From Candidatus Eiseniibacteriota bacterium (GTDB lineage Bacteria > Eisenbacteria > RBG-16-71-46 > DASYSL01), in NCBI GenBank assembly GCA_031431875.1, contig JANPEF010000085.1:1-45975 (forward strand): DNA of 45,975 nucleotides, read 5' to 3'. Every line of letters starts with the position of its first letter. Position 1 is the stretch's first letter. The position numbers and the translations under genes were made by a program. The notes under the pieces are model-generated. The model was not told the origin of the DNA, searched no databases, and worked only from the letters and a program-made list of their open reading frames with translations. Positions 8,205 through 45,975 of the stretch are shown here, one piece after another.

Positions 8205-9092
8205 ATGAACCTCGTGTGGGCGTCGCTTCTCGGGACCGTCAAGGGCATCTTCGAGGACGATTGCCACGGCATCGCCACGCAGATCGCCTACCACTGGATC
8301 TACGCGCTGTTCCCCGGGCTGTTCGTCATGGTCGCGCTGGTGACCGCTGTCGGCGCCAACCCGAACTCGCTTTCCGTGCTCGGCATGCTCGTCGAGCGCG
8401 CCACGCCCGGCGAGACGCGCTCGCTGGTCGAGGCCACGCTGGTGGCCATGCGCGAGGCGATCGCGCATGGCACGGCCCCGGTGCTGGGGCTGGGCCTCGT
8501 GGGAGTTCTCTGGGTGGCATCGAACGGCTTCGACGTGATCATGGGCGGCCTCAACCGGGCGTATCGCGTGACCGAGTTCCGTCCCTTCTGGTATCGCCGG
8601 CTGCTCGCCATCGTGCTCGTCGTGGCCGTGGGCTTTGGCCTGATCACCGCGTTCGAGATCCTGCTCGTCGGCTCGCAGCTGGTGAAGACGTGGATCGCCA
8701 CGTGGCCCGAGCCGCCGCAGCTCTCGGGCCTGTACGGCTGGGCGCGCTGGCCGGCCTATTTCCTCCTCGCCGCCATCGTCGGCTTCGCCATGTACGCAGT
8801 CGCCCCGGCGCTGCCGCGCGTCGACTGGCGCTGGACCGCGCCGGGCGCGGTGATGTTCGGCCTGGCCTGGGTGGCAATCGGCTACGGGTTCGATCGCTAC
8901 CTGTCGCTCTACGGCAAGATCGACAAGCTGTACGGAATCCTCGGCGCGTTCCTCGTGCTCATGACCTGGCTCTACCTGACCGCCTTCGCGTTCATGGTCG
9001 GCGGCGAGCTGAATGGCCAGATTCGATGGCGGTTCCTCGAACAGATCAGCCCGCGGCCTGCCGACCCGAGATCGTCATCTCCGCGATCTTGA
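8205..9092 (+). CDS. YihY/BrkB family inner membrane protein
   Basis: QIAYHWIYALFP, GLNRAYRVTEFRPFW, YGILGAFLVLMTWLYL, GGELN. Confidence 0.9.
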   Translation: MNLVWASLLGTVKGIFEDDCHGIATQIAYHWIYALFPGLFVMVALVTAVGANPNSLSVLGMLVERATPGETRSLVEATLVAMREAIAHGTAPVLGLGLVGVLWVASNGFDVIMGGLNRAYRVTEFRPFWYRRLLAIVLVVAVGFGLITAFEILLVGSQLVKTWIATWPEPPQLSGLYGWARWPAYFLLAAIVGFAMYAVAPALPRVDWRWTAPGAVMFGLAWVAIGYGFDRYLSLYGKIDKLYGILGAFLVLMTWLYLTAFAFMVGGELNGQIRWRFLEQISPRPADPRSSSPRS

Positions 9093-10425
9093 GCGTCGGC
9101 GAGTTCACGTTGCCGTTGTACCTGAGGTCGTTGCCGACCATCACCACGCTCTTCAGCATGTCGAGCGTGGTGCTCGCCACCGTGATCTCGGCAACCGGGA
9201 AGGCGACCTTGCCCTTCTCGATCCAGAACCCGGCAGCCTGGTACGAGTAGGCACCGGTCGTCGCGTTGTAACCGAACGCGCCGGAGTCCACCATCCAGAA
9301 CCCGCGGTCGACCGAGGCGAGGATCTGCTCGGGCGTGGACGCACCGTTGGCGATGTACAGGTTGCGCGGTCCGATGCCCGGCGCATTCTGGTACCCGCGC
9401 GTCGCGTTGCCCGTCGACCTGGCACCGGCGCGACGGCCCCAGTACGCGTTGTAGGCGAACATCTTCATCACGCCCTTGTCGATCAGGAGGTTCTTCTGCG
9501 TGGCGCCGCCCTCGCCGTCGAACGGCGCGGTGCCCACGCCGCCCGGCAGGATGCCGTCGTCGATGAGCGTGACCAGATCCGAAGCGATCGGCTGGCCGAG
9601 CTTCTCGGTCAGGTACGACACCTTCTTGAACGCCTGCTCTCCCGAAAACGCGTTGAACAGGTTCTGGATCCAGTTGCCCGCGATGTCGGGGTGGAGGATC
9701 ACCGGGACCTTCTGCGTCGGTACGCCGCGGGCGCCGATCTTGTCGATCGCGCGCTTGCCGGCCTCCTTGCCGATCGCCTCGGGCGTGCTCAACGCCTCGA
9801 GGTGGGACTGGAACTCGCCGTAGCCGCCCGACTGCTGCTTGTCGCCGTCGTCGGCGAGCGGGTTGATGAAGCCGCCGATCCCCGTGTTGCGGTAGGTCAG
9901 GCTCTTGCCGGCCGAGCTCGCGTACCAGGTCTCGCCGACGCCGCTCTGCAGCGAGCAGCCGTCGGTGCGCTTGATGCGCGGGTCGTAGGCCAGTGCGGCC
10001 TTCTCGACGCTGCGCGCCCAGTCGATCTTCTGCTCTGCGGTGAGCGCCGCGACCGCGGGATCGTAGGTCTTGAGCCCGGCCGCGTCGGCCGCCATCGCCG
10101 GCGGCGTGGCCGGCAGCCCGGCGGCCTCGTCGGCCTGCGCCTTCTTCGCCAGCTCGACGGCGCGCGTGGCGATGTCCTTGATCGCGTTCTCGCGGAAGTC
10201 GCTGGTGTAGACCAGCGCGGTGCGCTTGTCGACGAACACGCGCAGGCCGAGCCCGCGCGTTTGCGCCTGCTTCAGGTTCTCGACTTCGCCCTGCAGCACG
10301 TCGACCCGGAACTGCGCGCCGGATTCGACGAGGGCGTCGGCCTCCTTCGCGCCCGCCTTGAGCGCGAAGCCGACGGCTGATTCTGCCGCCTTCTGGAGCG
10401 TCAGGTTCGTGTCGGCGCTAGGCAC
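9046..10425 (-). CDS. pmbA: TldE/PmbA metalloprotease subunit
   Basis: GLGLRVF, PFDGEG, STGNA, TGAYS...GFWIEKG, SPTL; lacks the HExxxH motif. Confidence 0.92.
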   Translation of the reverse strand: MPSADTNLTLQKAAESAVGFALKAGAKEADALVESGAQFRVDVLQGEVENLKQAQTRGLGLRVFVDKRTALVYTSDFRENAIKDIATRAVELAKKAQADEAAGLPATPPAMAADAAGLKTYDPAVAALTAEQKIDWARSVEKAALAYDPRIKRTDGCSLQSGVGETWYASSAGKSLTYRNTGIGGFINPLADDGDKQQSGGYGEFQSHLEALSTPEAIGKEAGKRAIDKIGARGVPTQKVPVILHPDIAGNWIQNLFNAFSGEQAFKKVSYLTEKLGQPIASDLVTLIDDGILPGGVGTAPFDGEGGATQKNLLIDKGVMKMFAYNAYWGRRAGARSTGNATRGYQNAPGIGPRNLYIANGASTPEQILASVDRGFWMVDSGAFGYNATTGAYSYQAAGFWIEKGKVAFPVAEITVASTTLDMLKSVVMVGNDLRYNGNVNSPTLKIAEMTISGRQAAG

Positions 10426-12001
10426 GGGTGCCTCCCACGGTCATCTCGGAGAACATCACGGTGGGCTGTCCCACGCCGACGGGCTTCCACTGCCCGTCCT
10501 TGCCGCAGGTGCCCGTCTTCGTGTCGATCGCCAGGTCGTCGCCCAGCCCCTCGATCCGCAGCATCGCGTCGGCCGCGTTACCGGTGAGCGTCGCGCCCTT
10601 GACCGCGGACGTGATCTTTCCGTCCTCGATCAGGTACGCCTCGGAGACGACGAAGCTGAACATGCCGTCGGCCGGATTGACCGATCCGCCACCGAGGTTC
10701 TTGCAAAACAGGCCGTTCTTGATCGAGGCGATCATCTCGGCGGGCTTCGACGTGCCGCCAGCGATGTACGTGTTGGTCATGCGCGGGATGGGGAAGTCGC
10801 GGTAGCTGTTGCGACGGCCATTGGCCGTGCTCGTGTTGCCGGTGAGATCCGCGTTGAGGCGATCCCACAGATAGCCCTTGAGGACGCCCTTCTCGACCAC
10901 GTGCGACTTCTGCGACGGCGTGCCCTCGTCGTCCACCTTGAACGAGCCGCGCGCGTTCGGCACGGTCGAGTCGTCGTAGATGTCGACGATATCCGAGCAC
11001 ACCTTCTGGTTGAGCTGCTTCTCGCGGATCGAGGTCTTCTTGCGGATGCCGTCGCCCTCGAGCGAGTGGCCGAAGCACTCGTGGACGAGCACGCCGCCCC
11101 AGCCGTGGTTGATGATGACCGGGTAGCTGCCGGCCTTCGCATCGACGGCGGTCAGCAGCGCGATCGCCGTGTCGGACGCTTCGTGCGCGGTTTGCTCGGG
11201 CGTGCGCACCTTGTCGAAGTAGTCGGCCTCGACCGCGCCGCCGGCCATCGCCATGCCGCCCTGGCGATTCGACCCGTCGATCGCCGTCGGCACCACGGCG
11301 AGGCGCGAGATGAACTGGCGATCCTCGGCCCACACGCCGTCGGAGTTGGCGACCAGGATGGCCTTCGACGTGTCGGCCATGATGACCTGCACCTGCTTGA
11401 TCCGCGGGTCGCGGGTGCGCGCCGCCTCGTTGCCGCGGCGACACAGGTCGATCTTCTCGCCCTCGCTCGCGGTCAGCGGCGCGGGGCGGACCAGCACGAA
11501 CGGCGCCTTTGCCTTGGTCGCCGCGAACGCCCTGGGCGTGCCGCCGGGCTTGCCCCTGGCGATGGCGGCGGCGACGCGCGCGGCTTCGCGCAGGCCGTCC
11601 ATGCCGAACTCGTCGGCGTAGGCGTAGCCGACGGCATCGCCGTCGATGACGCGCACGCCCACGCCCGAGAGGACGCCGTACTGCGCCTGGCGCAGTTCGT
11701 TCTCGTCGAGCACGAAGTTGGTGTTGATCGTGTACTCGCCGTAGATCTCGGCGAACGGGGCGCCCTTCGACTGCGCGAGCTTGAGCAGTTCGGCGACCTG
11801 GTCCGGGGTCAGGAACCGGGTGACCGGCGGCAACTCGGCCTGGGCGGCCTGCGCGAGGACCGGCGCCCAGGTGTCGAGCGCGAGGCGCGACACCGCGACC
11901 CCCGCGCCGACCGCGAGGCTGCCGCGCATGAAGTCGCGGCGGGAGATCGAACAGGCGCCGAGGGCGGGCCCGCGATGTTGGAACGAACCGTGAACGTGCA
12001 T
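10418..12001 (-). CDS. tldD: TldD metalloprotease with twin-arginine signal
   Basis: HECFGHSLEGD metal motif, DDEG, PRMTNTY, CGKDGQ, GQPT; N-terminal SRRDFM. Confidence 0.93.
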   Translation of the reverse strand: MHVHGSFQHRGPALGACSISRRDFMRGSLAVGAGVAVSRLALDTWAPVLAQAAQAELPPVTRFLTPDQVAELLKLAQSKGAPFAEIYGEYTINTNFVLDENELRQAQYGVLSGVGVRVIDGDAVGYAYADEFGMDGLREAARVAAAIARGKPGGTPRAFAATKAKAPFVLVRPAPLTASEGEKIDLCRRGNEAARTRDPRIKQVQVIMADTSKAILVANSDGVWAEDRQFISRLAVVPTAIDGSNRQGGMAMAGGAVEADYFDKVRTPEQTAHEASDTAIALLTAVDAKAGSYPVIINHGWGGVLVHECFGHSLEGDGIRKKTSIREKQLNQKVCSDIVDIYDDSTVPNARGSFKVDDEGTPSQKSHVVEKGVLKGYLWDRLNADLTGNTSTANGRRNSYRDFPIPRMTNTYIAGGTSKPAEMIASIKNGLFCKNLGGGSVNPADGMFSFVVSEAYLIEDGKITSAVKGATLTGNAADAMLRIEGLGDDLAIDTKTGTCGKDGQWKPVGVGQPTVMFSEMTVGGTRA

Positions 12002-39015: not shown

Positions 39016-39669
39016 ATGCGCATTCCCGTCTATCTCGAAGTCGGCGCCCGCGGCGCGACCCGCGCCTGGGTACTGACGCTGCCCGGCGTGGCGGTCGATG
39101 CAGCTTCGCCGGAGGCGGCGCTCTTGGCCGTGCCTACGACCGTCGCCGCCGAAATTGCGCTCCTCGCACAGGGCGGACATCCGTGGGCTCACGCCCAAGA
39201 GCATCTCGAGTTCGTCGAGACCGAACGCGTCGACACCAATGTCGGACTCGAGGAAGGCTCGGCCCGCGCGCTCTTCAAGTGGGACCTGCGGCCGACCAAG
39301 CCGGAGGACGTCGCTGCTGCGCTCGCGCGCATCGAGATCGCCCGCCGCGCGATCGAGGCCGCCGTCGCCGGGACGCCCGACGCGACGGTCGTCGAGTCCC
39401 CGGTCGGATCGCGCCTGATCGCGCTGTCGGGATCGATGCTGTGGCTCCTGTCGCGCCTGGGATCGAAGCCGACCGGAACGCTCTCGCAAGAGCCGTTGCC
39501 GCGCTTCGTCGGCGCCGAGCAGATCGCCATCGAACGCTTGAACAACCTGCTCCCCGGCGACCTCGAGCGGCACGCGGTGTTCCTCGGGGAGCCGTGGACG
39601 ACCCGCAAGGTGCTGCGGCGGCTCGCCTGCCTGGTGCGTGCGGAGTCGCTCGCGACGGTTGCGCCATGA
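39016..39669 (+). CDS. Hypothetical protein (HicB-like N-terminus, DinB-like C-terminus)
   Basis: AWVLTLPGV..A.S.E.AL; EPWTTRKVLRR; TGCTATGTT just upstream (leaderless). Confidence 0.6.
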   Translation: MRIPVYLEVGARGATRAWVLTLPGVAVDAASPEAALLAVPTTVAAEIALLAQGGHPWAHAQEHLEFVETERVDTNVGLEEGSARALFKWDLRPTKPEDVAAALARIEIARRAIEAAVAGTPDATVVESPVGSRLIALSGSMLWLLSRLGSKPTGTLSQEPLPRFVGAEQIAIERLNNLLPGDLERHAVFLGEPWTTRKVLRRLACLVRAESLATVAP

Positions 39670-40943
39670 ACGTCGTGCATCCGGTGATCGTCGTGGGCGC
39701 CGGAGCGGCCGGGTTGATGGCCGCGATCGCGGCCGCGAAGCACGGCGCGCGCGTCATCCTGCTCGAGGGCACGACGCACGTCGGTACGAAGATTCTCATG
39801 TCCGGCGGCACGCGCTGCAACGTCACCCACGACGTGATCACGCCCGCCGACTACCACGGCGGCTCGCGCAACGTCGTGGCGCGGCTGCTGCGCGAGTTCT
39901 CGCACCTCGACACCCTGCGCTTCTTCGAGGACGAGCTGCACGTGCCGCTCAAGCGCGAGGACACGGGCAAGCTGTTCCCCGTGTCCGACGACGCACAGCA
40001 GGTGGTCGACGCGCTGGTGGCGCACTTGACCGAGCTGGGCGGCTCGATCTGGACGGGTCGCAAGGTCACCTCGATCGAGCGCCTGGCCGACGGCACGTAT
40101 CGCCTCGTCACCGACGTCGCGCCCATCCATGCGCACGCCGTGATCGTCACGACCGGCGGGCTGTCGTTCCCGCGCACCGGTTCCGACGGCACCGGCTACG
40201 GGCTCGTCCAATCGCTCGGCCACACGCTCACGCGCACCTCGCCCGCGCTCACGCCGCTCGTGGCGTACAGCGGCGGCATGCACGAGCGCCTGCGCGGCGT
40301 CACGCTGCCCGTGGCGTTGACGGTGCTCACCGGCGCGAACCGCAAGCGCTTCTGGCAGGGCGCAGGCTCGTTCCTGTTCACGCACTTCGGCTACAGCGGA
40401 CCCGTCGCGCTGGATGCGAGCCGTCACTTTGCGCGCGAGTCGTGGGACGGACCGGTCGCCGTGATCGCCAACTTCCTCCCCGAGGTCACGAGCGAGGCGT
40501 TCGAACGCGAGCTCATGCTCGCCATCGAGCACGAGCCACGGCGCACGCTGCCGGCGCTCCTGCGCGGTCGCATTCCCGAAAGCCTCGTCGGCGAGTTGCT
40601 GGCGCTCGTCGAGATCGAGCCGGAGCGCCCGCTGTCACGGATCTCGCGTGACGAACGCCGCGCGATCGTCGCGGCGGTGACCGCACACGAGCTGCCCGTG
40701 CTCGAGGTGATGGGCTACCGCAAGGCCGAGGTCACCGCCGGCGGCGTGCCCGTCTCGGAAGTGGACCCCCGCACACTCGAGTCCCGCCTGTCCCCGGGCT
40801 TCTTCCTGGCAGGGGAGATCCTCGACGTCGACGGGCGATTGGGGGGTTATAACTTCCAGTGGGCGTGGTCGACTGGGTGGGTGGCCGGGAAAGCGGCGGC
40901 AGCTCGTTCAGCGACCGAGACGTCGACGGCGCCTTCGCCGTAG
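39666..40943 (+). CDS. HI0933/BaiN/YhiN family FAD-dependent oxidoreductase
   Basis: VGAGAAG, KILMSGGTRCNVT, GKLFP, TGG.SFP.TGSDG.GY, LFTHFGYSGP, VTAGGV, GEILDVDG.LGGYNFQWAWSTG. Confidence 0.95.
   Translation: MNVVHPVIVVGAGAAGLMAAIAAAKHGARVILLEGTTHVGTKILMSGGTRCNVTHDVITPADYHGGSRNVVARLLREFSHLDTLRFFEDELHVPLKREDTGKLFPVSDDAQQVVDALVAHLTELGGSIWTGRKVTSIERLADGTYRLVTDVAPIHAHAVIVTTGGLSFPRTGSDGTGYGLVQSLGHTLTRTSPALTPLVAYSGGMHERLRGVTLPVALTVLTGANRKRFWQGAGSFLFTHFGYSGPVALDASRHFARESWDGPVAVIANFLPEVTSEAFERELMLAIEHEPRRTLPALLRGRIPESLVGELLALVEIEPERPLSRISRDERRAIVAAVTAHELPVLEVMGYRKAEVTAGGVPVSEVDPRTLESRLSPGFFLAGEILDVDGRLGGYNFQWAWSTGWVAGKAAAARSATETSTAPSP
40845..40900 (+). repeat. Direct repeat copy 1 (in-gene 3' end of the HI0933 gene)
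   Basis: Core TTCCAGTGGGCGTGGTCGAC at 40854-40873. Confidence 0.95.
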
Positions 40944-40974
40944 CGCGCGCCTGAACTCCTCGTGACCCCGAATC

Positions 40975-41304
40975 TCACAGCGGCTTCCCGGTTCGCCGCG
41001 GGCGAGTCCGCAACTGGTTCACTCCACGGCAAAGCTCCGCATCCGCATCCGCCAGTCGTCGCGCGAGACTGCGGACTTCAATCACCGCGAAGAATCCCGG
41101 GTTGATCGAATAGACGCGTGTGCGGCCCACGGATCGACCTGCGATCAGGCCATCGAGCTCAAGGGAGCGGATCGCCTTCTGGACGACAGAAAGGCTGGAT
41201 CCGAGGAGGCGGGCAAGCTCCCGCGGGTAGCTCTCTCCCCGGAGTTCGAGCGCCAGGAGCACGCGGGTTCGGGTCCGGCTGCCAAACGGGCTGGATTTCG
41301 TCGT
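40975..41304 (-). CDS. Winged helix-turn-helix protein (start ACG 41304 or GTG 41262)
   Basis: PFGSRTRTRVLLAL..RGESYPRELARLL....SVVQKAIRSLE.DGLI....VGRTRVY. Confidence 0.8.
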   Translation of the reverse strand, partial: TTKSSPFGSRTRTRVLLALELRGESYPRELARLLGSSLSVVQKAIRSLELDGLIAGRSVGRTRVYSINPGFFAVIEVRSLARRLADADAELCRGVNQLRTRPRRTGKPL

Positions 41305-41308
41305 GACC

Positions 41309-41338
41309 TTTATAGGAGGTCATATGACCGCTTGTCGA
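41309..41338 (-). promoter_or_regulatory. Promoter with palindromic operator for the wHTH gene
   Basis: TCGACA-N18-TATAAA on the minus strand; perfect palindrome GGTCATATGACC at 41318-41329. Confidence 0.6.
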
Positions 41339-41410
41339 GGTACTCGTCAAGGGCCCGTAAGAGCGTCTTCGGGGCCAGCCTCCGGCTCGAAGTCTCGACA
41401 CGAACCCGAC

Positions 41411-41473
41411 GGATACAACTTCCAGTGGGCGTGGTCGACGGGATGGGTGGCGGGGAGGAGCGCGATGCGTTGA
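41411..41473 (+). repeat. Direct repeat copy 2 (displaced HI0933 3' end)
   Basis: Encodes GYNFQWAWSTGWVAGRSAMR-stop; core at 41420-41439. Confidence 0.93.
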
Positions 41474-41600
41474 GTCGGGCCGTGGCCGTCCGCTACCGCG
41501 GATGGCCGTGACACCGCAAGCTGCCGAAGTCCGACATCTCGTGCGGTGGAACCGAGACGCGAGTCCGTGCCGCGGGACCGGAACCCAATGACGCTTTCCC

Positions 41601-41629
41601 TTGCAATGAGACTGACCGGTCTATACCAT
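41601..41629 (+). promoter_or_regulatory. Promoter with TetR operator (leaderless)
   Basis: TTGCAA-N17-TACCAT enclosing GAGACTGACCGGTCTA; GTG follows 7 bp later. Confidence 0.65.
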
Positions 41630-41636
41630 TCAGGCC

Positions 41637-42227
41637 GTGAGCCAGGTCCGCGAACGAATCCTCGACGTTGCCTCCGACCTCTTCTACCGCCACGGAATCA
41701 AGGCAGTGGGAGTCGACGCGATCATTTCCCAGGCCGACGTGGCGCGCATGAGCTTCTACCGCCATTTCCGCTCCAAGGACGGGCTGGTTGTGGCTTATCT
41801 GGAGCGGCGCGACGAGGCGACTCGGGTCTGGTTCGAGAAGCAAGTACGCCGGCTCGCGCCGAATCCCCGCGACCGTCCGCTAGTGGTTTTCGACGCGCTG
41901 GCGTTGCGTTTCAGATCCAAGGGGTACCGGGGCTGCGGCTTCATCAACGCGATTGCCGAGGTTGCAGACCCCGCGAGCGACGCGCACGGCGCCGCGGCGG
42001 CGCACAAGCGGCGCTTCCAGAGCTGGCTCGCCACGCTCTTGCGCGAAGCGGAGCTGGACGAGATCTTCGCGGCAGACCTCCTCCTCCTGTTCGAGGGCGC
42101 GACGGCCGTCTCCGTTCGCCAGGGAACAGCCGAGCCTGCGCTCCGGGCCAAGCGGATCGCTGCCCTCTTGCTCGGCACTCTCGAGCCCCGCCGAGTCCAG
42201 AGACGCCCAAGCACGCCTCGTCGCTAG
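41637..42227 (+). CDS. TetR-family regulator
   Basis: RERILDVA..LFYRHGI.AVGVD, FYRHFRSKD, RGCGFIN. Confidence 0.92.
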   Translation: MSQVRERILDVASDLFYRHGIKAVGVDAIISQADVARMSFYRHFRSKDGLVVAYLERRDEATRVWFEKQVRRLAPNPRDRPLVVFDALALRFRSKGYRGCGFINAIAEVADPASDAHGAAAAHKRRFQSWLATLLREAELDEIFAADLLLLFEGATAVSVRQGTAEPALRAKRIAALLLGTLEPRRVQRRPSTPRR

Positions 42228-42249
42228 ACCGCCACCTCCCGGAGACCCC

Positions 42250-43479
42250 GTGGCCGCACACGAATCTATCGCGGTTTCCGCTTCCGACGGATCGACGGCG
42301 ATCCCGAACGAGCTGCGCCCCGTCGCGCCATCGGAACGGCGTCTCGAACTGGACGTCTTGCGCGGCGTCGCGCTCTTCGGAGTGCTCCTCGTCAACATCG
42401 CCGTGTTCAGCGGCTCGGACCTGGCGCTCGAGCAGAAGCTACCCTCTCCCTGGGGCTGGGGCGGCGCATGGCCCAGCTATCTGCGGAGCGCGCTGATCGA
42501 GAGCAAGGCCGCCGCCCTCCTTGCAATGCTGTTCGGAGCCGGCCTGGTGATCCAGTGCGAGCGCGTCATGCGGCGAGGCCGCTCTTACGTCGGCTTCGCG
42601 TTCCGCCGCTCGAGCGCGCTCGCGCTGATCGGGCTCGCTCACACGCTCCTGCTGTGGAACGGCGACATCCTGCTCGACTACGCGGTGATCAGCCTTCTGC
42701 TGATCCCGTTCCTCAGCCTGCGCGCCTCGCGGATTCTGTGGGCGATCCCGGCACTCATTGCGGCGACCATCGTCCTGACGGTGCCCTTCCTGCACCTGGC
42801 CGAGTCAGGGCTCTCCTATCCCATGCAGTTGCAACACTACGGTGCCGGTTCCTGGGTGGACGCGCTCCGATTTCGGGCGTGGGAGTTCGTCCACGCCATG
42901 GGCCCGATGCGGGCGGCGAACCGGCTGCCGATCCTTTCACCGTTCTTCGTCCTCGGGGCCTATTTTTGGAAGACGGGGTATCTTTCCGAGCCGACGAAGC
43001 ATCGCGGTGCCCTCGTGCGGATCCTCGCCGTCTGTTCGCTGATCGGACTGTTCGCGAACGTCGTCCCGTGGGAGAACCTCGGCGGCTGGCTGACCGTGCA
43101 CATTCCATTTCGGCCGCTGAGAATCCTGATCAAGCTGGTGTGCTTCCTCGGTCGCCCTTTGCTCGCTCTCGGCTACGCCGCCGGGATCCTGCTCCTGCTC
43201 CAGCGACCCGGGTGGCGGCGCGCCCTCGCCCACATCGCACCCCTCGGACGAATGGCGCTGACCCAGTACTTACTCCAGTCCGTGGTGTGCACGCTGGTCT
43301 TCAATGGCTACGGGCTCGGCCTCTTTGGCAAGGTCTCGATCAACGCCTGCATCCTCGGTACGATCGCGTTCTTCCCCCTTCAGGTGTGGAGCAGCGAGTG
43401 GTGGTTAGCGCGGTTCCGGATGGGGCCGGCGGAGTGGTTGTGGCGCCGGATGGTGTATGGGGGAGCACGCCACGAATAG
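42250..43479 (+). CDS. DUF418/YeiB family membrane protein
   Basis: LDVLRGVALFGVLLVN, LFGAG, GDILLDY, GRMALTQYLLQS, GPAEWLWR; GTG after GGAG. Confidence 0.9.
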   Translation: MAAHESIAVSASDGSTAIPNELRPVAPSERRLELDVLRGVALFGVLLVNIAVFSGSDLALEQKLPSPWGWGGAWPSYLRSALIESKAAALLAMLFGAGLVIQCERVMRRGRSYVGFAFRRSSALALIGLAHTLLLWNGDILLDYAVISLLLIPFLSLRASRILWAIPALIAATIVLTVPFLHLAESGLSYPMQLQHYGAGSWVDALRFRAWEFVHAMGPMRAANRLPILSPFFVLGAYFWKTGYLSEPTKHRGALVRILAVCSLIGLFANVVPWENLGGWLTVHIPFRPLRILIKLVCFLGRPLLALGYAAGILLLLQRPGWRRALAHIAPLGRMALTQYLLQSVVCTLVFNGYGLGLFGKVSINACILGTIAFFPLQVWSSEWWLARFRMGPAEWLWRRMVYGGARHE

Positions 43480-43507
43480 GCTGACCTGTCCCTCCCCGGG
43501 GCTCGCG

Positions 43508-43591
43508 CACAAGTTCCAGTGGGCGTGGTCGACGGGGTGGGTGGCGGGGAAGGCGGCGGCGGATGAGAAGGATGCGAGACCCGAGGTCTAG
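43508..43591 (+). repeat. Direct repeat copy 3 (displaced HI0933 3' end)
   Basis: Encodes HKFQWAWSTGWVAGKAAADEKDARPEV-stop; core at 43514-43533. Confidence 0.93.
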
Positions 43592-43626
43592 GAAACCGCT
43601 GCTCTATCCACCTGAGCTACGGGGGC
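43578..43626 (-). pseudogene. tRNA-Arg(CCT) 5' fragment / pseudo-tRNA
   Basis: GCCCCCG TA GCTC AGGTGGATA GAGC A GCGGT TT CCT AG ACCTC GGGTC; T-arm and 3' acceptor strand missing. Confidence 0.85.
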
Positions 43627-43809
43627 ACGGGCGAGCGACTCTAGTGCATCACTCGGGAGGCCGACTCTCGCGCCCACGCGCTCGCGCAACTCGAGCGACT
43701 CGTTCTCCGAGTCGAACCCCGAACCACGGAGTGTTCCGGCCGGGGCCGGAATGATCCACCTCGTTGTCCAACGCCGGCGCCAGTTCGCGCCGTTACTCGT
43801 CTACTCATC

Positions 43810-45558
43810 TCACTCGAGCACCACCATTCGTCGCGCGGCCACTTCCCCGCCCGCGCGGATTAGTACGAGGTAGATTCCTGCCGGCACGCGGCGGAGCTGC
43901 TCGTTCCGACCGTCCCATCGCAGGATCTGGCGCCCAGCTGAGACCTCGCCGTCCGGCATCAGCGACCGGACTCGACGGCCCGCAGCGTCGAAAACCTCCG
44001 CCGACGCGTGGGCCCGAGACGGCAGATCGAAGTCAATCGTGACAGGTTCGCCCTGAGAGGGACTGGGATACGGTGCGAGCAGCCGGAGACCGGCCGCCGC
44101 CCTCGGAGCGGGAACATCCGCGACACCGCCGGAGGCGTACACCCGAGAAGCGTAGATATCGAAGTTCCCGACACGAGCGTCGGACCAGGATACGATCGCT
44201 CCGCCCGCGCCATCACCGATGATGTACGGGGTGTCCTGCTGGTTGCCCGCCTGACACAACGCCTTTCCGTCGGTAGGCCAGGCGGGGTCCAGGACGCCCG
44301 AGGCCAGCGCGTGCTGGGCGTAGACGTCGACGCTGGTCCCGCTGCGGACGTCCTGCCACGTTGCGATCATCCCGCCATTGCCATCGGCGACGATCTGGAC
44401 GTAGGACTGGTGGCTCGCGGCGGTACACACACCGGTGCCGTCCGCTGGCCAAGCCGGGTCCACCCCGCCCGACGCCAGCACGTGCTGCGCGTAGATGTCC
44501 AAGTCGAAACCCCGCTGGTCGTGCCACGCGACGATTGCGCCGCCCGACCCGTCCGTCACGATCTGGGGGACGCCCTGCGGACTCCCGGCGGTGCAGAGCG
44601 CCTGGCCATCCACCGGCCAGAGCGGATCCACAGTCCCCGAGGCCAGTACGCGCTGGGCGTAGATGTCGAAACCTGTAGCCGCGCGGCTGTCCTTCCAGGT
44701 GATGATCGCTCCGCCCGACCCATCGGTCACGATCGCCGGATCGAGCTGGATGAGCGGGGCCGTGCACACCGCCACTCCGTCCACCGGCCACAGCTCGTCC
44801 ACCGTCCCGGTCACGAGGACGTGCTGCGCGTAGATGTGGTAGTTCGAGCCGCGACCGTCGTACCAGGTGACGATGGCGCCACCCGCGCCGTCCGATGCGA
44901 TCCGGGGGCCCCCCTGATCGTTCTCGGCCAGGCACAGAGCCCGGCCGTCCACCGGCCAGACGGGATCCACCGCGCCGGAGGCCAGAACGTGCTGGGCATA
45001 GATGTCGTAGTTGGGGGAGTCGGCACGCACATCGTTCCAGGTGACGATGGCGCCGCCCGCCCCGTCGCCGACGAGTTGCGGATAGAACTGGTCGTTCGCG
45101 GCCGTACAGAGGGCGCGACCATTCGCCGGCCAGGCAGGATCCACGGCCCCGGAGGCCAGCACGTGCTGGGCGTAGATGTCGAAGCCGACGTTACCGCGAG
45201 CGTCCTGCCACGTGACGATCGCGCCGCCTGCTCCGTCGCTGACGATTTCCGGATTGGTCTGCTGGCTCCCCGCGACCGCGCACAGGGCGCGGCCGTCGGC
45301 CGGCCAGGCCGGATCCACCTCGCCGGAGGCGAGCACGTGCTGGGCGTAGATGTCCGGGGCGTTGCCGTCGCGCAGGTCCTGCCACGTGATGATGGTGCCG
45401 CCTGCGCCGTCCGATACCACCCTCGGGTTGACCTGATTGTTCTCCGCGGTGCACACCGGGCCGCCATCGATTTGCCACTGGGCCCGGACGGTCGTGGCGG
45501 AGGTGGCGAGGAGAGACGGAAGAAGAACAAACCAGAGCAGCATGCGATGCGGGCGCAA
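43810..45558 (-). CDS. Secreted repeat protein (8 repeats of about 57 aa, probable beta-propeller) with C-terminal FlgD-Ig-like domain
   Basis: TTG 45558 after GAGGAGG (or ATG 45543); signal ending VRA; repeats C.A..Q..P....DG.GGAI..W.D.R....DIYAQ; C-terminal P.P..., FDAAGRRVR.L, WDGR...G.Y. Confidence 0.88.
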   Translation of the reverse strand: MRPHRMLLWFVLLPSLLATSATTVRAQWQIDGGPVCTAENNQVNPRVVSDGAGGTIITWQDLRDGNAPDIYAQHVLASGEVDPAWPADGRALCAVAGSQQTNPEIVSDGAGGAIVTWQDARGNVGFDIYAQHVLASGAVDPAWPANGRALCTAANDQFYPQLVGDGAGGAIVTWNDVRADSPNYDIYAQHVLASGAVDPVWPVDGRALCLAENDQGGPRIASDGAGGAIVTWYDGRGSNYHIYAQHVLVTGTVDELWPVDGVAVCTAPLIQLDPAIVTDGSGGAIITWKDSRAATGFDIYAQRVLASGTVDPLWPVDGQALCTAGSPQGVPQIVTDGSGGAIVAWHDQRGFDLDIYAQHVLASGGVDPAWPADGTGVCTAASHQSYVQIVADGNGGMIATWQDVRSGTSVDVYAQHALASGVLDPAWPTDGKALCQAGNQQDTPYIIGDGAGGAIVSWSDARVGNFDIYASRVYASGGVADVPAPRAAAGLRLLAPYPSPSQGEPVTIDFDLPSRAHASAEVFDAAGRRVRSLMPDGEVSAGRQILRWDGRNEQLRRVPAGIYLVLIRAGGEVAARRMVVLE

Positions 45559-45756
45559 GGTGACCTCCTCGTAGTCTCTCCGGCCCAGGTCCAGGGCGCC
45601 CGGGTCATGCCAGGCAAGCGGCCCGCCCCGCCAGCGCGAACACTTTAGCACGGCGGACAGCGGCAAATACGAGGAATGACCCCCTCGAGTGCCGGCGCTG
45701 CATGCTGTTGCTAGGCAGCGTCCGATGGTCCCTGGGTGGAGCTCGCGTACAACTTC

Positions 45757-45975
45757 GGTTGTGCCCGCACGATTGTGTGTAGACCGGGACGGTCCCTTCC
45801 TGGGGCCGTCCTGCTTCGTTTTTTCGCGAGTGCACTACACCGCGTACTTCCGTCGATGCTCTCTCCACCGTGAAATCGTCCGGCTCGGCACCCGCCCCCA
45901 GTAGTAGTCGGCCCACGGCTCGGACAGCGCGAGCCGGCTCGGGAAGAGTCGCTTTGCGAGCACGTCCTCGACCGC
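45757..45975 (-). mobile_element. Probable right end of an IS1-like insertion sequence
   Basis: GGTTGTG terminus (GGnnnTG pattern) at 45757, hairpin 45787-45811, ORF C-terminus ending at 45835. Confidence 0.4.
45835..45975 (-). CDS. C-terminus of a 5'-truncated gene, possibly an IS1-like transposase
   Basis: Open frame from the window edge: AVEDVLAKRLFPSRLALSEPWADYYWGRVPSRTISRWREHRRKYAV-stop; assignment from recollection of similar proteins only. Confidence 0.5.
   Translation of the reverse strand, partial: AVEDVLAKRLFPSRLALSEPWADYYWGRVPSRTISRWREHRRKYAV

Follow-up and report, generated by a model that had tools for sequence, protein, structure and literature searches.

Repeated HI0933 gene ends in an Eisenbacteria genome as probable decayed remains of tyrosine-integrase elements

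Three copies of one gene end

We analysed a 45,975-nucleotide stretch of DNA from a Candidatus Eiseniibacteriota bacterium (GenBank assembly GCA_031431875.1, contig JANPEF010000085.1), called the window below, in which the 3′ end of a flavoprotein gene of the HI0933/yhiN family (aminoacetone oxidase family) occurs three times, with small cargo genes between the copies. The gene matches PF03486 (HI0933_like, E 2e-76) and TIGR00275 (above cut-off), and is single copy in its own genome, with one tblastn match. The arrangement, in positions of the window, is as follows.

39666–40943, forward strand: HI0933/yhiN-family flavoprotein gene, the target gene
40845–40943, forward strand: copy 1, in-frame gene end and attL-like junction (core 40854–40873; downstream arm-type site absent)
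40975–41313, reverse strand: cargo 1, winged helix-turn-helix (wHTH) regulator gene, with ATA at the start position and without the partner open reading frame (ORF) of the related genomes G004 and G007
41411–41473, forward strand: copy 2, right end of the wHTH cassette joined to the tail of the TetR cassette, RSAMR and stop (core 41420–41439; arm-type site absent)
41637–42227, forward strand: cargo 2a, TetR-family regulator (PF00440; 91–95% amino acid identity to the copies in genomes G013, G114 and G020)
42250–43479, forward strand: cargo 2b, DUF418 (YeiB-like) membrane protein (PF04235; 91–97% amino acid identity to G013, G114 and G020)
43493–43591, forward strand: copy 3 (core 43514–43533; tail stop codon 43589–43591)

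The same 20-bp core, TTCCAGTGGGCGTGGTCGAC, lies at 40854, 41420 and 43514 (spacings 566 and 2094 bp), exactly as a preliminary description of the sequence had reported, where about 2e-7 occurrences of one given 20-mer would be expected by chance in the window. A site profile run over 500 kb of other contigs of the same genome gave no match; two further cores were found on its contig C109, at 12048 (no mismatches) and 24496 (one mismatch), 12.4 kb apart. Numbering relative to the core, copies 1 and 2 differ at five positions between -9 and +36, and copies 1 and 3 at four from the core to +47, every one a third codon position. The earlier remark that the differences fall at wobble positions thus holds within the conserved stretch, but upstream of it the changes between copies 1 and 3 are non-synonymous. 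Each copy does run into a tail and stop of its own, the three tails after FQWAWSTGWVAG reading KAAAARSATETSTAPSP, RSAMR and KAAADEKDARPEV, each followed by a stop codon.

Gene ends in related genomes

Relatives were drawn from Candidatus Eisenbacteria. A degenerate site pattern run over 206 genomes of the phylum matched 93, and outside the order of the window two matches occurred in 1 of 104 genomes. Flanks were taken from 38 genomes of the order, our own included, the first 18 being mainly genus relatives and multi-match genomes and the remaining 20 nearly all single-match; the sample is biased towards multi-copy genomes. A profile scan of the 38, three of which yielded no row, gave 32 gene copies and 36 orphan (extra) gene ends, the orphans being spread over 21 genomes. 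Arrays are present in five of the six genomes of the window's genus. The cargo at the HI0933 end differs between genomes, G020 has up to four orphan ends in the 8 kb next to the gene, and in G024 and G113 the intact gene and the distal orphan copy stand on the same contig, with the gene restored and its 3′ end repeated at the far boundary. The HI0933 gene of G002 is 95–100% identical to that of the window as far as the core region and then diverges into other cargo. Taken together, these comparisons support the 3′ end of HI0933 as an order-wide integration hotspot, and the replacement gene ends, tandem arrays and variable cargo anticipated in the preliminary description were borne out when, as it had proposed, the cores in the HI0933 flanks of relatives were compared.

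Two variants at these loci are of separate interest. In G002 (L026:3870-3883) GVYT replaces GGYN directly before the core, a change that could inactivate the site in that genome, and in G117 (locus L055) a partial HI0933 duplicate lies 11 kb downstream of the gene and is followed by an arm-bearing orphan copy.

An integrase clade at HI0933

Queries with the genome's own XerD-like, IntI-like and serine recombinases on these loci missed the cognate integrase, which was revealed by reading the ORFs beside the gene. It is a 353-residue tyrosine integrase (P0001; PF00589 above cut-off). In several relatives its gene stands about 150–220 bp past HI0933 and convergent to it, next to HTH_17 excisionase-like and AAA_25 genes and accompanied by restriction-type cargo. 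A tyrosine integrase next to attL is found in relatives and not in the window. Considering the best 30 loci of the phylum, all 10 at 66% identity to P0001 or above abut the HI0933 core, compared to none of the other 20 (37–56%), 18 of which have a tRNA in the locus. In a tree of rows longer than 250 residues (shorter fragments dropped, midpoint root, deep forks left open), the HI0933-adjacent full-length rows form one clade with support 100/100. A similar picture emerges from metagenomes, where 12 of 26 loci are close homologues: six abut HI0933, five end too early, and one, L141, has the arm site and no core in its flank, so that six of the seven with enough flank lie at HI0933, while the 14 distant loci include none there. 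Phage records hold only distant integrases (best 28%), and neither of two integrase loci in viral contigs (36–37%) is at HI0933. Comparison of sequences thus points to one tyrosine-integrase clade as the likely recombinase behind the HI0933 arrays.

The lack of an integrase in the window, already remarked upon in the preliminary description, extends further: the cassette cargo consists of wHTH, TetR and DUF418 only, without integration or transfer genes, and the cognate enzyme was not found anywhere in the genome at E 0.01, the metagenome-assembled genome (MAG) being 98% complete. The genome-wide recombinase search that had been suggested did return XerD-like, IntI-like and large serine recombinases, among them an IntI-like integron integrase (G000:C74:4663-5550) and a large serine recombinase beside a fumarase-like gene (G000:C39:2252-3613). 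A serine-integrase attP symmetry around the core was also considered and rejected, as it gave no clear peak (best 0.41, against 0.36 in genes).

Arm-type repeats and the proposed crossover

A tandem TGTGCT-like repeat, putatively an arm-type site, occurs on the integrase side, at +152/153, in five integrase-bearing gene ends, which served as training rows, and in G104. On the far side, the motif is found upstream in 20 of the 36 orphans, in 19 of them at -143 to -146 (two of these being training rows) and in one, on C109, at -77, and downstream in none of the 36. Three weak off-position scores near gene copies lie inside the null range. Five tRNA-Leu integrases have the same motif. At L077 the far arm, core, near arm and integrase are found together as an attP-type junction, which may be either an excised form or a tandem junction. 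Each of the three window copies is free of arm-type sites out to a distance of 330 bp.

Agreement between orphans and gene copies begins only at about -7, and a W-S-W codon variant (+9 to +12) is found in the intact gene of five of six loci with closely related integrases, across hosts. Since this variant tracks the integrase group, the gene tail is borne by the element, and the two observations together would place the crossover between about -7 and +8 of the core. The copies had initially looked like former gene ends from different alleles; their tails are mostly ends that elements carry, and not former alleles of the host.

Cassettes shared across families

The segment 41411–43492 of the window matches G114 at 96%, G020 at 96% (from 41569) and G013 at 90%, though these genomes belong to another family and their HI0933 proteins are only 41–44% identical to that of the window. 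In G114 and G013 the match starts at the core, and in G114 no other cassette precedes TetR-DUF418, and the intact HI0933 ends with the tail of that cassette, RSAMR. In all three genomes the cassette continues for about 220–330 bp to an arm site and core, and so retains its far arm; in the window this part, some 300 bp with the arm-type site included, is missing, DUF418 being followed almost directly by copy 3, and the loss is located at a short similar stretch. Evidence of cassette transfer between families is the main thing that the window adds. Additionally, the cargo between the two copies on C109 is 84–86% identical to cargo adjacent to the integrase family in L141 and G018.

The C109 copies (L001, L002) bracket a histidine kinase/response regulator pair and a Cus/Czc-type efflux operon. 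Positions 8390–11520 of this contig are 97% identical to DNA downstream of the array in G002, so C109 may continue the array of the window, the two contigs not being physically linked.

Interpretation

We consider that the gene ends are attachment junctions of a tyrosine-integrase family and that what the window preserves is a tandem stack of such elements, decayed and no longer mobile, with a probability of roughly 85%. Elements would integrate within the last 20 or so codons of HI0933 and supply a replacement end, each new element entering at the intact gene end and pushing older ones downstream. Deletion would then remove the integrase together with the +152 arm, leaving a cassette of tail, cargo and -145 arm, and such a cassette could change hosts by co-excision with a helper that had landed in front of it (cis-mobilisation), whereas a helper excising alone would leave it in place. 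The window copies have lost their arms and the search for the cognate integrase came up empty, so the array is probably immobile in this genome, and likely a fossil of tandem accretion resembling cis-mobilizable elements (CIMEs) rather than an array active in trans.

Several observations weigh against this explanation. No recombination has been observed, and the arm-type function of the repeats is putative, assigned by their position and by analogy with lambda-type integrases. The wHTH cassette is without an arm site in each of three genomes. The cognate integrase is found in none of the six genomes of the window's genus, the five others being MAGs of 53–91% completeness. No contig was found to carry an integrase element and, behind it, a second cassette bounded by att sites; cis-mobilisation is therefore deduced from the asymmetry of the arms and the sharing of cassettes. 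Finally, copy 2 reads STGW at +19 to +27, in host-type codons, against SSGT in the same cassette of G114, and G020 has the TetR-DUF418 cassette behind a different tail; from these two findings, homologous recombination or gene conversion would also have acted.

A wider proposal, which we put forward only tentatively, is an order-wide exchange of cassettes in Eisenbacteria, in which a roaming integrase clade would shuttle 1–3 kb units, each with an extra HI0933 C-terminus, its cargo and a single arm site, across families, having switched from tRNA to a protein-gene target while keeping its arm motif. If true, this would be an integron-like system without a resident integrase, converging with the Tn7-like element Tn6230 on one gene family.

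The best surviving alternative, though an improbable one, is that the small cassettes can still move, with a copy of the integrase missing from the assembly, or another recombinase of the genome, acting in trans in a kind of integron-like shuffling. Contigs from run X5, of another study, align with the wHTH cassette as far as the core and with copy 3 starting at 43504, before running into other sequence, and an X4 contig begins at 41413 with 30 unaligned letters upstream. These breaks at or near cores hint at differing array content in co-occurring strains, and fit strain differences equally well. No copy-to-copy joint is among those listed for eight runs, though with contig data and three joints unlisted this is not evidence of absence; X5, X7, X11 and X15 barely cover TetR-DUF418, and uncovered parts were not counted as evidence. 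The recombinases encoded elsewhere in the genome could be invoked, but no window copy has an arm site, none of the 36 orphan-led cassettes has a near-side arm, and the cognate integrase was not recovered. Service in trans, one of two mechanisms offered in the preliminary description, is for these reasons unsupported in this genome.

The other mechanism offered there, short-homology recombination, here taken together with the RecA type and acting at the conserved motif without a site-specific enzyme, is less probable still as the origin of the array. About 45 bp of conserved homology, the host-type codons within copy 2, the partial HI0933 duplicate in G117 and the position of the copy 3 loss would all suit it, but it leaves unexplained an integrase clade fixed to the site, arm repeats at constant offsets and an attP-type junction. 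It is because this dedicated clade and its positionally fixed repeats mark the site that a short-homology origin finds no support, and homology-based recombination likely acts only as a secondary editor.

We give almost no weight to the idea that the junctions are attC-like sites processed by the IntI of contig C74. The seven bases before the core match the attC consensus RYYYAAC in 19 of 36 orphans, and an IntI fragment lies near the array of G003; but the same match is frequent in intact genes (24 of 32) because the stretch is coding, a downstream GTTRRRY is present in only 5 of 36 orphans, and no orphan folds better than its shuffles (z -1.0 to +1.0; copy 2 of the window +0.3, with its ends unpaired). 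An integron array, or a cluster of attC sites lacking integron integrases (CALIN), was rejected for want of a hairpin with RYYYAAC and GTTRRRY ends.

A strain-chimeric misassembly, named in the preliminary description as what would overturn it, is equally remote: one contig from X2, another sample of the same study as the possible source run, covers 40712–43543 and all three copies with 0 differences, so the copies are not an artefact of the window's assembly, and the same architecture recurs in 21 genomes, the single-contig G024 among them, though contigs from X1, X3 and X5 cease to match at 43590 with 25–26 unaligned letters, which leaves the join beyond copy 3 unconfirmed. Support here comes from contigs.

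Cargo, regulatory sites and neighbouring features

Further features of the locus are the following.

41316–41331, no strand assigned: predicted operator, the palindrome GAGGTCATATGACC(T/G)C immediately before wHTH on its upstream side
41601–41630, forward strand: predicted TetR promoter/operator (TTGCAA...AGACTGACCGGTCTATACCAT)
43589–43655, reverse strand: 5′ half of a tRNA-Arg(CCT) ending in the anticodon loop (43626–43589), with a conserved leader

Pfam matches to the window proteins (HI0933_like, a weak wHTH, TetR_N and DUF418) agree with the cargo as first described. The wHTH gene begins with ATG in G003 and G004, compared to ATA in the window, and its palindrome, a perfect 16 bp in both of those genomes, has one mismatch here. 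The TetR promoter/operator motif is conserved upstream of all six TetR homologues inspected, distant ones included. Thus, where each cargo had been credited with its own promoter and operator, the operators stand as putative sites conserved in relatives; for promoters, a sigma-70 scan gave 0 at its threshold, the TetR candidate scoring below it. PADLOC gave only weak HTH matches for wHTH and none for TetR, DUF418 or the wHTH partner, Rfam only two chance-level matches, and the GC content shows only a mild dip (0.63–0.69 against 0.70). Homologues of wHTH are present in many genomes of the order. In G004 and G007 the gene is followed by an ORF (L030:1878-2686; L128:3177-4012) without a Pfam, NCBIfam or PADLOC match, nucleotidyltransferase-like by eye and missing in the window and G003; the two are possibly a toxin–antitoxin-like pair.

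The stop codon of copy 3 overlaps the anticodon-loop end of the tRNA-Arg(CCT) half, so the tail of copy 3 may not be an original gene end. The leader of this tRNA is common to intact genes or 5′ halves in genomes of family f3 (halves at L118, L121 and L132), where the tRNA-Arg(CCT) loci are often near integrase-like ORFs; the intact gene of our genome is on contig C158. This half probably marks the att end of another island family, unrelated to the HI0933 elements, whose members would replace the 5′ half of the tRNA. Further on, 43810–45666 (reverse strand) encodes a secreted repeat protein with an FlgD Ig-like tail, which may also be cargo, homologues being found behind HI0933 ends in G020 and G023, and at 45757–45975 the contig terminates in a repeated transposase-like element common to C40, C43, C109 and C119.

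Comparison with known systems

The mechanism itself is well known, and what the window shows is probably one decayed case of it. Known elements that repair the 3′ end of a protein gene are the lambdoid phage 21 and e14 at icd, and SCCmec composites at rlmH. They integrate within the gene, supply a recoded version of its end and show tandem att repeats; their targets differ from the one here, and SCCmec uses serine recombinases.

The closest parallel in accretion is that of the CIMEs related to ICESt1 and ICESt3 in Streptococcus thermophilus, for which the relevant passages of PMC5704250 set out a three-step model of tandem accretion: decayed elements without integration genes are stacked at the end of a target gene, incoming elements use the site that contains the end of the gene, and tandems are transferred together. 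CIMEs are defined there as retaining attL and attR. The cassettes of the window lack integration and transfer genes and stand in tandem at the target of a related element, but have kept cores without arm-type sites, and are decayed CIME-like remnants rather than CIMEs proper. Here the target is HI0933, and cassettes keep at most the far arm, those of the window none; the helpers revealed neither relaxase nor conjugation genes, though no systematic search for them was made.

A similar example is found in the ssrA islands of Dehalococcoides, described in sections of PMC3146451 as numerous islands in tandem, delimited by repeats of the target 3′ end, with the integration module on the reverse strand beside attL, many islands without such a module, and a conserved non-target motif upstream of the repeat. 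These islands use a tmRNA target and the serine integrase DsiB (PMC3146451), compared to a protein gene and a tyrosine integrase in Eisenbacteria. Because the HI0933 target is protein-coding, the replacement end must stay translatable.

We found no report of an integrase at HI0933 or at yhiN, which we take to belong to the HI0933 family, in the literature searched; TIGER/Islander tables lay outside the search and may list the target, and the Integrase-On-Demand supplement has no HI0933 or yhiN entry. For Tn6230, yhiN is a known chromosomal landing site, so that the two systems share a target gene family, but its transposition is placed between yhiN and yhiM, and gene-end replacement does not figure in the passages on that site (PMC11406308 Table 1, PMC10121019, PMC8417528). 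What distinguishes the present system is a tyrosine recombinase that would cross over inside the coding sequence. An insertion of the Tn6230 or Tn7 type, which would lie downstream of the gene with a short duplication, does not fit the in-frame gene-end repeats of about 45 bp; the window cargo has no transposition genes, TniQ not having been searched for genome-wide.

The integrase, attP and attB assembled here form a complete, testable set from an uncultured phylum, directed at a protein-coding gene that is conserved, and could serve as a genetic tool; the site also shows where cargo for defence, metal efflux and regulation accumulates in Eisenbacteria. Finally, the comparison suggests that two unrelated mobile systems, Tn6230 and a tyrosine integrase, chose the same gene family.

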